Source: a virus (Duplodnaviria; Heunggongvirae; Uroviricota; Caudoviricetes). Taken from it: a stretch of DNA of 8,511 nt. Shown piece by piece: positions 3,132-8,511 of the stretch. Position 1 is the first letter of the stretch. Each line of letters starts with the position of its first letter. The position numbers and the translations under genes are program-made. The notes below the pieces were generated by a model. That model ran no database searches. It worked only from the letters and a program-made list of their open reading frames with translations, and had not been told where the DNA came from. The stretch is from the IMG/VR virus record IMGVR_UViG_2734482550_000011. The stretch is one strand, 5' to 3'.

Positions 3132-3940
3132 ATGCGTAAAGTTTGTGCAGCCATTTTGTCCGCAGCCATTTGCCTGGCCGTATCCGGTGCGCCTGCATGG
3201 GCGTCTGAACATCAGTCCACGCTGAGCGCGGGGTATCTTCATGCCCGGACCAACGTTCCCGGCAGTGATGATCTGAACGGGATTAACGTGAAATACCGTT
3301 ATGAGTTTACGGATACGCTGGGGCTGGTGACGTCATTCAGCTATGCAGGAGACAAGAATCGCCAGCTGACCCGTTACAGCGATACCCGCTGGCATGAAGA
3401 TTCCGTGCGTAACCGCTGGTTCAGCGTGATGGCGGGGCCGTCTGTGCGCGTGAATGAATGGTTCAGCGCGTATGCGATGGCGGGTGTGGCTTACAGCCGT
3501 GTGTCGACTTTTTCCGGGGATTATATCCGCGTAACTGACAATAAGGGGAAAACGCACGATGTGCTGACCGGAAGTGATGACGGTCGCCACAGCAACACGT
3601 CTCTGGCGCACTGACGGTTTCATCGTGGGTGTCGGTTANNNNNNNNNNNNNNNNNNNNNNNNNNNNNNNNNNNNNNNNNNNNNNNNNNNNNNNNNNNNNN
3701 NNNNNNNNNNNNNNNNNNNNNNNNNNNNNNNNNNNNNNNNNNNNNNNNNNNNNNNNNNNNNNNNNNNNNNNNNNNNNNNNNNNNNNNNNNNNNNNNNNNN
3801 NNNNNNNNNNNNNNNNNNNNNNNNNNNNNNNNNNNNNNNNCCCGACCGAATCCGTGGCCATTGATATTGCTTATGAAGGCTCCGGCAGTGGCGACTGGCG
3901 CACTGACGGTTTCATCGTGGGTGTCGGTTATAAGTTCTGA
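3132..3940 (+). CDS. lom: Outer-membrane protein Lom (Ail/Lom/OmpX family, lysogenic-conversion moron); interrupted by N-run, first segment ends at premature TGA 3612-3614
   Basis: ATG at 3132 preceded by GAGAGG (3121-3126). Product MRKVCAAILSAAICLAVSGAPAWASEHQSTLSAGYLHARTNVPGSDDLNGINVKYRYEF... is near-identical to lambda Lom as I recall it, with a signal peptide ending AWA. After the N-run the Lom C-terminus PTESVAIDIAYEGSGSGDWRTDGFIVGVGYKF plus TGA (3842-3940) is read in a different frame. Confidence 0.85.
3603..3930 (+). repeat. Exact 36-bp direct repeat (copies 3603-3638 and 3895-3930) flanking the lom N-run
   Basis: CTGGCGCACTGACGGTTTCATCGTGGGTGTCGGTTA occurs just before the N-run and again at the 3' end of lom. 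The first copy joins lom codon ...SLA directly to lom 3'-terminal sequence and creates an in-frame TGA. Confidence 0.9.
3639..3840. other. N-run (202 nt) inside lom
   Basis: Uninterrupted n characters. Intact lambda lom would need only about 24 nt (WGAGVQFN by my recall) between the flanking visible residues. Confidence 0.95.
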
Positions 3941-4004: not shown

Positions 4005-6929
4005 ATGGCAGTAAAGATTTCAGGTGTACTGAAAGACGGCACAGGAAAACCGGTACAGAACTGCACAATCCAGCTGAAAGCAAAACGTAACAGCACCACG
4101 GTGGTGGTGAACACGCTGGCCTCAGAAAATCCGGATGAAGCCGGGCGTTACAGCATGGACGTTGAGTACGGTCAGTACAGCGTTATTCTGTTGGTGGAAG
4201 GATTCCCGCCGTCACATGCCGGGACCATCACTGTGTATGAAGATTCCCGACCCGGTACGCTGAATGATTTTCTCGGTGCCATGACGGAGGATGATGCCCG
4301 TCCGGAGGCACTGCGCCGTTTTGAGCTGATGGTGGAAGAGGTGGCGCGTAACGCGTCCGCGGTGGCACAGAACACGGCAGCCGCGAAGAAATCAGCCAGC
4401 GATGCCAGCACATCAGCCCGTGAGGCGGCAACCCATGCGACTGATGCTGCAGATTCAGCACGTGCAGCCAGCACGTCAGCCGGACAGGCCGCTTCGTCGG
4501 CTCAGTCAGCGTCTTCCAGCGCAGGAACGGCATCAACAAAGGCCACTGAAGCCTCAAAAAGTGCTGCCGCTGCAGAGTCCTCAAAAAGCGCGGCGGCTAC
4601 CAGTGCCGGTGCGGCGAAAACGTTAGAAACGAATGCGGCAGCGTCACAACAATCAGCAGCCACTTCTGCATCCACCGCGACCACGAAAGCGTCAGAAGCT
4701 GCCACCTCAGCCCGGGATGCGTCGGCTTCAAAAGAGGCGGCAAAATCATCAGAAACGAACGCATCATCAAGCGCCAGTAGCGCAGCTTCCTCGGCGACGG
4801 CGGCTGCAAATTCTGCGAAGGCGGCCAAAACGTCCGAGACGAACGCCAGGTCTTCTGAAACGGCAGCGGGACAGAGTGCCTCAGCTGCGGCAGGCTCAAA
4901 AACAGCGGCTGCGTCGTCTGCCAGCGCCGCGTCAACAAGTGCCGGGCAGGCCTCAGCCAGTGCCACCGCCGCCGGAAAATCGGCAGAAAGCGCCGCATCA
5001 TCCGCTTCAACAGCCACAACGAAGGCTGGCGAAGCCACTGAGCAGGCCACGGCAGCAGCGAGGTCAGCTTCCGCAGCGAAGACATCCGAAACGAACGCGA
5101 AAGCGTCGGAAACCCGTGCAGAATCCTCAAAAACGGCTGCCGCATCGTCCGCCAGTTCGGCGGCGTCATCGGCATCATCGGCGTCTGCTTCAAAAGATGA
5201 GGCGACCAGACAGGCGTCAGCAGCGAAGGGCAGCGCCACGACGGCATCCACGAAGGCGACAGAGGCTGCTGGTAGTGCGACGGCAGCNNNNNNNNNNNNN
5301 NNNNNNNNNNNNNNNNNNNNNNNNNNNNNNNNNNNNNNNNNNNNNNNNNNNNNNNNNNNNNNNNNNNNNNNNNNNNNNNNNNNNNNNNNNNNNNNNNNNN
5401 NNNNNNNNNNNNNNNNNNNNNNNNNNNNNNNNNNNNNNNNNNNNNNNNNNNNNNNNNNNNNNNNNNNNNNNNNNNNNNNNNNNNNNNNNNNNNNNNNNNN
5501 NNNNNNNNNNNNNNNNNNNNNNNNNNNNNNNNNNNNNAATCCAGCTAAGCAGCGCGACCAACAGCACGTCTGAAACGCTGGCGGCAACGCCAAAGGCAGT
5601 AAAAGCAGCCAATGACAATGCTGAGAAACGTCTGCAGAAAGATCAGAACGGTGCGGATATCCCTGGCAAAGACACCTTTACGAAAAATATTGGTGCCTGC
5701 CGTGCCTTCGGTGGGTCAGTAAGCACAACAACAGGAAACTGGACGACTGCACAGTTTATCGAGTGGCTGGATTCTCAGGGAGCATTTAACCATCCATACT
5801 GGATGTGCAAGGGTTCCTGGTCTTATGGCAATAATAAAATCATTACTGATACTGGCTGCGGTAATATTCATCTCGCCGGAGCTGTCATTGAAGTAATGGG
5901 GATAAAGTCAGCGATGACGATCCGCATTACCACTCCGACCACATCCAGCGGTGGCGGAACAACCAACGCCCAGTTTACCTATATTAATCACGGAACAGAT
6001 TATTCACCTGGCTGGCGAAGGGACTATAACTCCAGAAATAAGCCAACGGCATCAGAGATCGGGGCGCTACCGTCAGGTGGAACAGCAGTATCATCAGTTA
6101 ATCTGGCTTCAAAAGGTCGGGTAGCCGCGCTGACAGACAATACGCAGGGGGCAGCAGGTCTTGAGTTATACGAGGTGTATAACAACGGATATCCAACAGC
6201 GTATGGAAATATCATTCACCTGAAAGGGATGACAGCCGTTGGCGAAGGTGAGTTACTCATCGGCTGGAGTGGTACAAGCGGTGCTCATGCTCCGGCATTT
6301 ATTCGTTCACGACGGGATACGACCGACGCAAACTGGTCGCCGTGGGCGCAGCTTTACACCTCGGCTCATCCTCCTGCAGAGTTTTATCCAGTCGGTGCAC
6401 CAATCCCGTGGCCATCAGATACCGTTCCGTCTGGTTATGCCCTGATGCAGGGGCAGACTTTTGACAAATCTGCTTACCCGAAACTTGCAGCCGCTTATCC
6501 GTCAGGCGTGATCCCTGATATGCGTGGCTGGACGATTAAGGGCAAGCCCGCCAGTGGTCGTGCCGTATTGTCTCAGGAACAGGATGGCATTAAATCGCAC
6601 ACCCACAGCGCCAGCGCATCCAGTACGGATTTGGGGACGAAAACCACATCGTCGTTTGATTACGGCACTAAATCCACGAATAACACCGGGGCGCATACGC
6701 ACAGTCTGAGCGGCTCTACAAGTTCAGCTGGGGCCCACCAACATAGTCAGACTGGGCCCAGAACGAATAGCGGGAGTCAACCTACTGGAATGTTTCCGGC
6801 AGGGAGTACTCAAGTTAGCGGGACTAATCAGGTTGGTATCAGTGGCTCATTAACCAGTGGCACCTCCCAATGGGTAGGTAAATCATCTTCAGAAGGAAAC
6901 CATACACACTCACTGTCCGGCACAGCAGC
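4005..6929 (+). CDS. stf: Side tail fibre protein Stf (long variant); internal N-run 5288-5537; 3' end lies inside N-run 6930-7191
   Basis: ATG at 4005 (the track starts at an upstream in-frame GTG 3999) preceded by GGGG. N-terminus [26 protein letters not shown]... matches lambda Stf as I recall it, followed by Ala/Ser-rich repeats. After the N-run the protein continues in frame 1 from about 5539 ([22 protein letters not shown]...) to the conserved Stf C-terminal region [15 protein letters not shown]...SHTHSASAS...GAHTHSLSG...[11 protein letters not shown], which runs into the next N-run. Confidence 0.85.
4380..5287 (+). repeat. Imperfect tandem coding repeats (Ala/Ser/Thr-rich, recurring K-T/S-SETNA units) within stf
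   Basis: Recurring units such as [35 protein letters not shown] and [19 protein letters not shown], with matching DNA repeats (for example gaaacgaacgc at several positions). The array continues into N-run 5288-5537. Confidence 0.8.
5288..5537. other. N-run (250 nt) inside the stf repeat region
   Basis: Uninterrupted n characters. Stf frame changes from frame 0 to frame 1 across it. Confidence 0.95.
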
Positions 6930-7191
6930 NNNNNNNNNNNNNNNNNNNNNNNNNNNNNNNNNNNNNNNNNNNNNNNNNNNNNNNNNNNNNNNNNNNNNNN
7001 NNNNNNNNNNNNNNNNNNNNNNNNNNNNNNNNNNNNNNNNNNNNNNNNNNNNNNNNNNNNNNNNNNNNNNNNNNNNNNNNNNNNNNNNNNNNNNNNNNNN
7101 NNNNNNNNNNNNNNNNNNNNNNNNNNNNNNNNNNNNNNNNNNNNNNNNNNNNNNNNNNNNNNNNNNNNNNNNNNNNNNNNNNNNNNNNNNN
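6930..7191. other. N-run (262 nt) covering the stf 3' end and tfa 5' end
   Basis: Uninterrupted n characters. By my recall of lambda, about 60 Stf residues and 32 Tfa residues are missing, about 276 nt, which is compatible with the run length. Confidence 0.95.
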
Positions 7192-7679
7192 TTCCGCCTC
7201 ATACAGGTCTGCCTGCAAACAGTACCGATATTGCACCGCCAGATATTCCGGCTGGTTTCGTGGCTGTTTTCAACAGTGATGAGTCATCGTGGCATCTCGT
7301 TGAAGATCATCGGGGTAAAACGGTTTATGACGTGGCTTCCGGCGACGCGTTATTTATTTCTGAACTCGGCTCATTACCGGAAAATGTCACCTGGTTATCC
7401 CCGGAAGGGGAGTTTCAGAAGTGGAACGGCACAGCCTGGGTGAAGGATACGGAAGCAGAAAAACTGTTCCGGATCCGGGAGGCGGAAGAAACAAAAAACA
7501 GCCTGATGCAGGTAGCCAGTGAGCATATAGCGCCGCTTCAGGATGCTGTGGATCTGGAGATCGCAACGGAGAAAGAAACCTTGTTGCTGGAAGCTTGGAA
7601 AAAGTATCGGGTGTTGCTGAACCGTGTTGATACATCAACTGCACCGGATATTGAATGGCCAGTAGCACCTATAGGGTAA
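7192..7679 (+). CDS. tfa: Tail fibre assembly protein Tfa (chaperone), 5'-partial, start hidden in N-run
   Basis: Frame 0 from 7194 reads [59 protein letters not shown]...[21 protein letters not shown] with TAA at 7677-7679, near-identical to lambda Tfa from about residue 33 as I recall it. The track ORF 7260..7679 is its tail, starting at an internal GTG. Confidence 0.85.
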
Positions 7680-7760
7680 ATTCGTAATGATTACCTAAAT
7701 ACGTTATTCTTTTGTTAAAAAAGTGATTTTGCTATAGGTAGGGAGTATGTTCTTGGATTA

Positions 7761-7795
7761 AGAATAAAAAATCGCCATGAAAGAGCTTCATGGCG
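7761..7795 (-). terminator. Rho-independent terminator for a leftward (minus-strand) transcript
   Basis: On the minus strand, stem CGCCATGAA, loop GCTCT, TTCATGGCG (plus coordinates 7773-7795), followed by ATTTTTTATTCTT. A 9-bp GC-rich stem in otherwise AT-rich DNA. On the + strand the hairpin is not followed by a T-run. Confidence 0.55.
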
Positions 7796-7944
7796 AGTAC
7801 ATAAACGTACAAAATGTGATGAAAGTAGAGTGGCGTAAGCCACTATATTAAGATATGACAATAGCGAAGAAAAGTAAATAACATTTTATGGACGTTTAAT
7901 TGTTAATTATAAAAACTAGAGTGCCCGATATTGTTTATCTTGCT

Positions 7945-8046
7945 TTAAAATAATGTACTCAAACCAAATTTTTGAGCTAAAAGCTCAAATAATATAAATG
8001 CAATAATAATGTTTAATAAGACAATTAGCTTGCTTTGTATTTTCAT
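7945..8046 (-). CDS. Hypothetical 33-aa hydrophobic small protein (MKIQSKLIVLLNIIIAFILFELLAQKFGLSTLF)
   Basis: Minus-strand ATG at 8046 to TAA at 7945, below the track's ORF size cutoff. Basic N-terminus followed by about 20 hydrophobic residues (one predicted TM helix or a signal peptide). It lies between a promoter-like motif and the minus-strand terminator. No clear Shine-Dalgarno; could equally be the signal-peptide remnant of a decayed gene. Confidence 0.2.
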   Translation of the reverse strand: MKIQSKLIVLLNIIIAFILFELLAQKFGLSTLF

Positions 8047-8080
8047 TTCGGAATACTGTTAAGTAACTTTGATGACCCTA

Positions 8081-8109
8081 ACAATAGATCGGAATTTTCT
8101 TAGAGTCAA
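8081..8109 (-). promoter_or_regulatory. Candidate sigma70 promoter for the leftward small transcription unit
   Basis: Minus strand TTGACT (plus 8104-8109), 17-nt spacer, TATTGT (plus 8081-8086), about 35 nt upstream of the small-ORF ATG. Such motifs arise easily by chance in AT-rich DNA. Confidence 0.2.
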
Positions 8110-8428
8110 TGGTCACTGTTTTTGCTTGCAAAGCAAATGTTTTGGTGGTTATAAGTCGTCTTAATATAGTCACGCATGCAACTTGTTCCATGCGGAGATT
8201 AAAGATTGGAATATAACGCGAAGATGGAATTAAATTACATTTGCAATAATTAATTTATTATTACTCAATAATTACCGATATTATTATTGTAAATTAATCA
8301 TTAGAATGCAAAAAGAAATGTAACGGCAAAATAAGAGGACGATAGCTGAGAAAAAAGCGTGCTTTCCCAATCTGGGGCAAATCACGTCTGAATGACACCT
8401 GAAAACAGGTGGTAGCCTCAAGAAGGCT

Positions 8429-8511
8429 GGTGATGCTGCCAACTTACTGATTTAGTGTATGATGGTGTTTTTGAGGTGCTCCAGTGGCTTCTGTTTCTAT
8501 CAGCTGTCCCT
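8429..8511 (+). mobile_element. IS1 insertion sequence, left end (partial, continues beyond the window)
   Basis: GGTGATGCTGCCAACTTACTGATTTAGTGTATGATGGTGTTTTTGAGGTGCTCCAGTGGCTTCTGTTTCTATCAGCTGTCCCT matches the IS1 left terminus as I recall it, including the terminal inverted repeat GGTGATGCTGCCAACTTACTGAT. Confidence 0.85.
8484..8511 (+). CDS. insA: IS1 InsA, N-terminal 9 codons (3'-partial)
   Basis: GTG at 8484 followed by GCT TCT GTT TCT ATC AGC TGT CCC, encoding (M)ASVSISCP, the InsA N-terminus as I recall it. Confidence 0.75.

Follow-up and report, generated by a model that had tools for sequence, protein, structure and literature searches.

A two-module cassette in the exchangeable slot of side tail fibres of the lambda type

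Introduction

The window analysed here is the whole 8511-base stretch of DNA of the Caudoviricetes record IMGVR_UViG_2734482550_000011, the right end of the tail region of a lambdoid prophage. Its gene for the side tail fibre (stf) raises a question, as the encoded protein (Stf) carries a central segment, between a conserved linker after its repeats and its conserved C-terminal region, that is not found in phage lambda. The original prediction, made from the letters of the DNA, took this segment for a low-GC (guanine plus cytosine) module that was horizontally swapped into the gene and may add a second binding or enzymatic activity to the fibre. We asked what occupies this place, whether it is foreign, and what it may do. 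The segment at 5604-6393 is likely to be a two-domain structural cassette in an exchangeable slot of Stf, installed by recombination at conserved linkers.

The central segment replaces an unrelated segment of lambda Stf

The stf frame is open from 5539 to 6929, and its translation holds exactly the sequences quoted in the original prediction. Within this translation, Pfam assigned residues 1-34 to a Phage_fiber_2 repeat and residues 286-333 to a Collar domain, with only a sub-threshold match to Gp34_trimer between the two. The in-frame stretch between the last Phage_fiber_2 repeat and the Collar (GAPIPWPSD, from 6382) was 259 residues long, or 263 residues when FYPV was included, in agreement with the approximately 260 residues expected. 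DNA homology to lambda stf ended at 5603 and restarted at 6394, leaving 5604-6393 of the window non-homologous; the coordinates first proposed, 5600-6400, were thus almost exact. At the protein level, lambda Stf (KT232076, 774 residues) aligned by blastp only to residues 1-35 and 283-463 of the same translation.

The slot is not empty in lambda, which has an unrelated segment of 147 residues (VVMDETNRKAPLDSPALTGTPTAP…GAGENSAFPA) in the same place. The cassette of the window is therefore a replacement rather than an insertion, and the notion that a module had been added to the fibre did not hold. The Cys residues that had drawn attention are present: the module has three, all of which are conserved in S' of phage Mu. 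Other kinds of element in 5600-6400 were considered and rejected, as the list of open reading frames (ORFs) of the window gave just short chance ORFs on the opposite strand and no Rfam family of non-coding RNA was matched.

If the masked runs of N in the window have their true length, Stf is estimated at approximately 1,026-1,030 residues; its close full-length relatives have 964, 983, and 1,007 residues. A fibre of roughly 1,000 residues, as predicted, is plausible, but the central module explains just about half of the residues in excess of the 774 of lambda. The slot contributes approximately 116 of them, and the Ala/Ser repeat region is approximately 105 residues longer than that of lambda, each additional Phage_fiber_2 repeat contributing approximately 44 residues.

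The slot holds at least four unrelated cassettes

Six Stf proteins were compared over the slot, defined as the region from the last PKAVK motif to GAPIPWPSD. At least four unrelated cassettes were found in otherwise near-identical proteins: 147 residues in lambda Stf, 182 residues in E. coli O78 strain 3, 263 residues in the type of the window, and 416 residues in StfR of the K-12 Rac prophage. The comparison with StfR-type fibres, which had been proposed as a check, thus found the same slot with a different content. The left breakpoints of DNA homology were located at 5603 for lambda, 5622 for O78 strain 3, and 5663 for Rac stfR, and the breakpoints coincide with conserved linkers, namely Phage_fiber_2/PKAVK at the left end and the beginning of the Collar at the right end.

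The cassette was 98.5-100% identical in three Stf proteins, while the variable tip of two of them (PhiR29_1 and NH-21) was 34-37% identical to that of the window. A near-identical cassette with divergent tips indicates that cassette and presumed specificity determinant assort independently. The cassette occurred in combination with at least three different tips, and its conservation across differing tips argues against a role as the specificity determinant. The tip segment of the window itself (6714-6929) differs from those of lambda, StfR, PhiR29_1, and NH-21, and it is likelier to determine the host range than the module that had been flagged. The prophage of O78 strain 3 shares the lambda attachment site (attLambda/bio) and the IS1 insertion of the window, yet it has another cassette and another tip, and the cassette and tip of the window match a prophage at the Qin site. 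This mismatch between cassette or tip and attachment site makes the mosaic nature of the locus visible.

The cassette is common. The module and the collar were 97-99% identical at the nucleotide level in seven deposited phages (Salmonella phage SPF_0923, PhiR29_1, PhiR29_2, PhiR68_2, PhiR42_1, PhiR26_1, and mEp460_ev081), in which the product is annotated as a side tail fibre protein. A search of the literature on the PhiR and mEp460 phages with the same Stf returned nothing relevant. Of 5426 complete E. coli genomes, 1598 contained the 777-nucleotide module, with a coverage of at least 80% in 800 genomes (approximately 15%), mostly at an identity of at least 95%. The module is a standard component of one common long Stf variant; together with the ordinary base composition described below, this is essentially the outcome that the original prediction had named as speaking against itself.

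The cassette consists of two independently shuffled fibre modules

Searches with tblastn and blastp resolved the segment into two units, modules A and B. A search of PDB sequences using phmmer matched residues 27-211 of the translation to residues 178-362 of 8ju3_A (E 5.4e-84), a chimeric S/S' construct of the tail fibre of phage Mu G(-). Module A also has the fold of the 8JU3 domain. This structure of the Mu G(-) tail fibre S' (gp52) is attributed in PMC11821841 to Mori et al. (2024, Virology 593:110017). From the sequence match, module A is the same domain as residues ~178-340 of S'. Using blastp, module A was 82% identical to P2 gpH over residues 309-483 (a stretch that also takes in the last fibre repeat), 82% identical to residues 215-358 of P1 S'v, and approximately 71% identical to the module A stretch of D108 S'v; using tblastn, the identity to Mu S'v was 70% over residues 4-153. 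The nucleotide identity of module A to related fibres was 73-79%.

Module B was 64% identical to residues 47-153 of P1 S'v, and its other relatives from tblastn were found in Gifsy-2 Stf, Goslar, Vibrio phages, and gp37 of Acinetobacter phage 133. Module B alone gave no match to PDB sequences, even at E 10. Tail-fibre families of PHROGs matched modules A and B at differing relative positions, and the order of the modules also differed among fibres: A is followed by B in the window, B by A in P1, and A by a divergent B-like domain in Mu and P2. The differing order and the separate occurrence of A and B across fibres identify them as independent shuffling units. In this respect the original prediction of a horizontally swapped module was correct, given the alternative cassettes of the slot and halves that occur separately and reordered in P2 gpH, Mu S', and P1 S'. 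Module A is internal in P2, Mu, and P1, and never forms the C-terminal tip.

An enzymatic activity of the module was put forward in the original prediction, and the three Cys and the lack of a named Pfam domain fit it; nothing further points to it. Such an activity could be that of a depolymerase, an esterase, or another glycan-modifying function, as in tailspikes. The profile and structure searches of the 5600-6400 translation yielded the 8JU3 domain and tail-fibre families. Only tail-fibre families of Pfam and PHROGs matched the module, no enzyme family was found for it in Pfam, NCBIfam, or PHROGs, and no enzyme fold rose above noise in the structure searches. The enzymatic reading is close to refuted, and we regard it as highly improbable.

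The base composition of the cassette is ordinary

The segment had been described as AT-richer than the flanking stf sequence. The composition was tested by the GC content at each codon position and by the expectation from the amino acid composition. The module (5605-6381) had a GC content of 50.6%, with 0.544 at second (GC2) and 0.467 at third codon positions (GC3). The respective values were 61.8%, 0.816, and 0.512 for the upstream Ala/Ser/Thr-rich repeats, 53.3%, 0.615, and 0.489 for the downstream collar and tip, and 50.1%, 0.396, and 0.518 for tfa. The raw GC content is indeed lower than that of the stf flanks, but the segment is not GC-poor. The average GC content of the E. coli genome is approximately 50.8%; the module lies close to it and seems "low-GC" only by contrast. 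The GC excess upstream is due to the second-position GC of Ala, Ser, and Thr codons, as these amino acids account for 222 of the 293 residues in the repeats.

The GC3 of the module was not significantly different from that of the repeats (z -1.05), the collar and tip (z -0.45), or tfa (z -0.97), and a compositionally foreign island was thus not found. GC3 was below that of the Stf N-terminal domain (0.604, similar to J and lom), lom, and J (z -2.6 to -6.8); this step sits near stf codon 134, at the end of the N-terminal domain and away from the edges of the module. Both the codon-position analysis and the expectation from the amino acid composition ruled out a low-GC island.

Recent acquisition of the segment from a low-GC source beyond the enterobacterial phage pool, with the composition marking its foreignness, would account for the fall in raw GC across the left edge (61.8% to 50.6%) and for the more distant homologues in Vibrio, Aeromonas, and Shewanella phages. 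However, the module does not stand out from its stf and tfa neighbours in GC3, Ala/Ser codons explain the excess upstream, the nearest relatives are enterobacterial phages with 73-79% nucleotide identity, and the cassette is fixed at an identity of at least 95% in approximately 1,280 E. coli records. Such an origin is therefore very improbable.

Proposed role of the cassette

We propose that the cassette was installed by homologous recombination at the Phage_fiber_2/PKAVK linker on the left and at the start of the Collar on the right. Modules A and B would be trimeric domains that serve as knobs or spacers in the distal shaft and determine at what distance and in what geometry the needle resembling T4 gp37 follows the Ala/Ser-rich shaft. 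Receptor specificity would stay in the variable gp37-like tip, folded with the help of Tfa. Ur-lambda adsorbs reversibly via OmpC by means of its Stf, and an engineered fibre that joins the N-terminus of lambda Stf to the C-terminus of the P2 fibre was functional (bioRxiv 10.1101/2022.09.30.509847). The functional fusion shows that such junctions tolerate swapping, which fits the modular picture.

Some points weigh against this proposal. The high conservation of the modules would also fit the binding of a conserved ligand, such as the inner core of lipopolysaccharide (LPS). The AlphaFold2 model is a monomer in which module B was predicted with low confidence, and for this reason we can only infer the trimeric knob architecture. 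In addition, the masked runs prevent the intactness of this copy of stf from being read from the window.

The principal alternative is that module A, module B, or both form a second receptor-binding site of low specificity, for example for conserved LPS core sugars, which would make the fibre bivalent, with a lateral glycan contact and a gp37-like tip binding a porin. Module A is common to the fibres of P2, Mu G(-), and P1, phages that bind LPS, and it has no dedicated Pfam family. The invariant residues include W88, W94, Y96, D104, E118, and R129, and the invariant aromatics W68, W76, W88, W94, Y96, Y148, and W159 could bind sugar. We consider this alternative unlikely. A more specific version, in which module A is a lateral site for the conserved LPS core, LPS is contacted at mid-fibre before the gp37-like tip binds a porin, and the four cassettes represent alternative secondary receptors, appears more doubtful still. 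A structural role of both modules is the reading that we favour.

Of the original observations, the position of the segment, its absence from lambda, and its Cys residues were confirmed, and its low GC was not as stated; of the interpretation, the swapped module was supported, whereas the addition, the foreign origin read from GC, and the enzymatic activity were not. The swapped cassette is real but ordinary and already known, because an identical cassette is present in public phage genomes and the domain structure has been solved. It implies no new biology, and its practical value lies in annotation and engineering. The natural junctions at which four unrelated cassettes exchange are mapped to the PKAVK linker (5603/5604) and the start of the Collar (~6382-6394). 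Module A, the 8JU3 domain, has no Pfam family of its own though it occurs in some fibre of approximately 30% of the complete E. coli genomes.

Layout of the window

The ORFs of the window (Table 1) follow the order J, lom, stf, and tfa, which matches the annotation of lambda, PhiR29_1, and E. coli prophages; the tfa counterparts in relatives are annotated as tail fiber assembly protein. Four runs were masked with N (1252-1561, 3639-3840, 5288-5537, and 6930-7191), the last of which contains the end of stf and the start of tfa. The length of every run leaves a remainder of one when divided by three, and J, lom, and stf therefore appear frame-shifted across the runs. The run of 310 nucleotides stands in for approximately 342 nucleotides in relatives, and the run of 250 nucleotides exceeds the equivalent stretch of E. 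coli NH-21 by one nucleotide. The stf reading frames of relatives are intact.

Table 1. Features of the window, with positions in the 8511-base stretch.
Feature	Position	Strand	Evidence or remark
J, 3' part	ends 3061		
lom	3132 to ~3940		
Stf N-terminal domain, tail attachment	4005-4406	+	Pfam PF08400 phage_tail_N, E 3.2e-72, residues 1-134, full-length match
Ala/Ser/Thr-rich repeat shaft of Stf	4407-5287	+	Runs into masked 5288-5537; A 110, S 74, T 38 of 293 residues
Last Phage_fiber_2 repeat, conserved left linker and recombination junction	5539-5604	+	PF03406, E 2.7e-15
Module A, compact alpha/beta fibre domain common to P2 gpH, Mu and D108 S', and P1 S'	5605-6063	+	
Module B, second small fibre (knob-type) domain, independent shuffling unit	6064-6381	+	P1 S'v match
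Collar domain and conserved start of T4 gp37-like HxH needle, right slot junction	6382-6713	+	PF07484, E 2.2e-12
Variable segment of gp37-like tip, probable receptor-specificity region	6714-6929	+	Continues into masked 6930-7191
tfa, tail fibre assembly chaperone, 5' end masked	7192-7679	+	94% nucleotide identity to lambda tfa
IS1A left end (GGTGATGCTGCCAACTTACTG…)	from 8429 (window part 8429-8511)		

Wholly inside the tfa coding sequence, Rfam RF02111 (IS009) matched 7441-7639 on the plus strand with 218 bits (E 4e-54), more than the gathering score. This family was probably built on a tfa-like prophage fragment and would not represent an independent RNA gene.

The junction of tfa, spacer, and IS1 recurs in 285 complete E. 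coli genomes, and in E. coli O78 strain 3 it adjoins ybhB-bioA, which corresponds to a prophage at the lambda attachment site. The AT-rich spacer between tfa and IS1 (7680-8428) is approximately 750 bp long with a GC content of approximately 30%, and it has no annotated gene in relatives. It carries a hydrophobic ORF of 33 codons on the minus strand (8046-7945, MKIQSKLIVLLNIIIAFILFELLAQKFGLSTLF), followed downstream on the same strand by a strong terminator-like hairpin (7796-7772). This ORF could be a candidate small membrane peptide or moron.

Comparison with known fibre systems

One of the closest known systems is the Stf of lambda (Ur-lambda), which shares the N-terminal domain, the Ala/Ser repeats, the Phage_fiber_2 motif, the Collar, and the gp37-like tip, as well as the adjacent tfa and the position of stf after J and lom. 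It differs in the content of the slot and in its shorter repeat region. StfR of K-12 Rac (1120 residues) has the same architecture, slot boundaries, and left flank as the window with its own cassette, and the Stf of O78 strain 3, in the genomic context of the window, has extra fibre repeats in addition to its own cassette. Downstream of the module, the Collar and the HxH repeats match the needle of T4 gp37 (PDB 2XGF, E 4.1e-59), which has no counterpart of the module itself.

Mu, P2, and P1 share the modules in other settings. In Mu S', the domain starts exactly at the boundary of the invertible G segment, and after it come the divergent B-like domain and a C-terminal tip of the Mu type (…INGTWYN), which uses the chaperone U'. 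In contrast, the domain in the window is followed by module B, the Collar with the gp37-like HxH needle, and a lambda-type Tfa. P2 gpH (79% nucleotide identity over the stretch aligned above, in a variant of 736 residues) likewise has module A directly after Phage_fiber_2 repeats, but it differs by a DUF3751-type N-terminus for the baseplate of a contractile tail, the lack of module B, and an LPS-binding tip of the P2/Mu type. P1 S' in the C(-) orientation has both modules, but in the reverse order, within the invertible C segment, and with a Mu-type tip.

Since module A starts at the boundary of the Mu G segment, a relic of an invertible segment was considered and rejected. No crossover core of the AAACCNNGGTTT type was found in stf, a single match with one mismatch in J was at chance level, and no invertase gene followed tfa within the window; relatives at the Qin and Rac sites carry pinQ or pinR. 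A tip of the Mu/P2 type (…INGTWYN) with a U'/G chaperone was not found either, and blastp gave no match to these fibres beyond modules A and B. As a whole, the Stf of the window is not a fibre of the Mu/P2/P1 type, having no Mu-type tip, inversion site, or invertase in the window.

That lambda, P2, Mu, P1, and T4 share mosaic tail fibres has been in textbooks since the early 1990s. For lambda Stf, P2 H, Mu S/S', P1 S/S', and T4 gp37, such mosaicism was reportedly described by Haggard-Ljungquist et al. in 1992, and Hendrix and Duda in 1992 and Sandmeier in 1994 are said to have described it for the same group of tail fibres. The window protein has the PF08400 N-terminus, the gene order, and the Collar with a gp37-like needle of lambda-type Stf proteins (its extreme C-terminus being masked). 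It belongs to the lambda-type Stf family, and its module A to the family of the 8JU3 domain.
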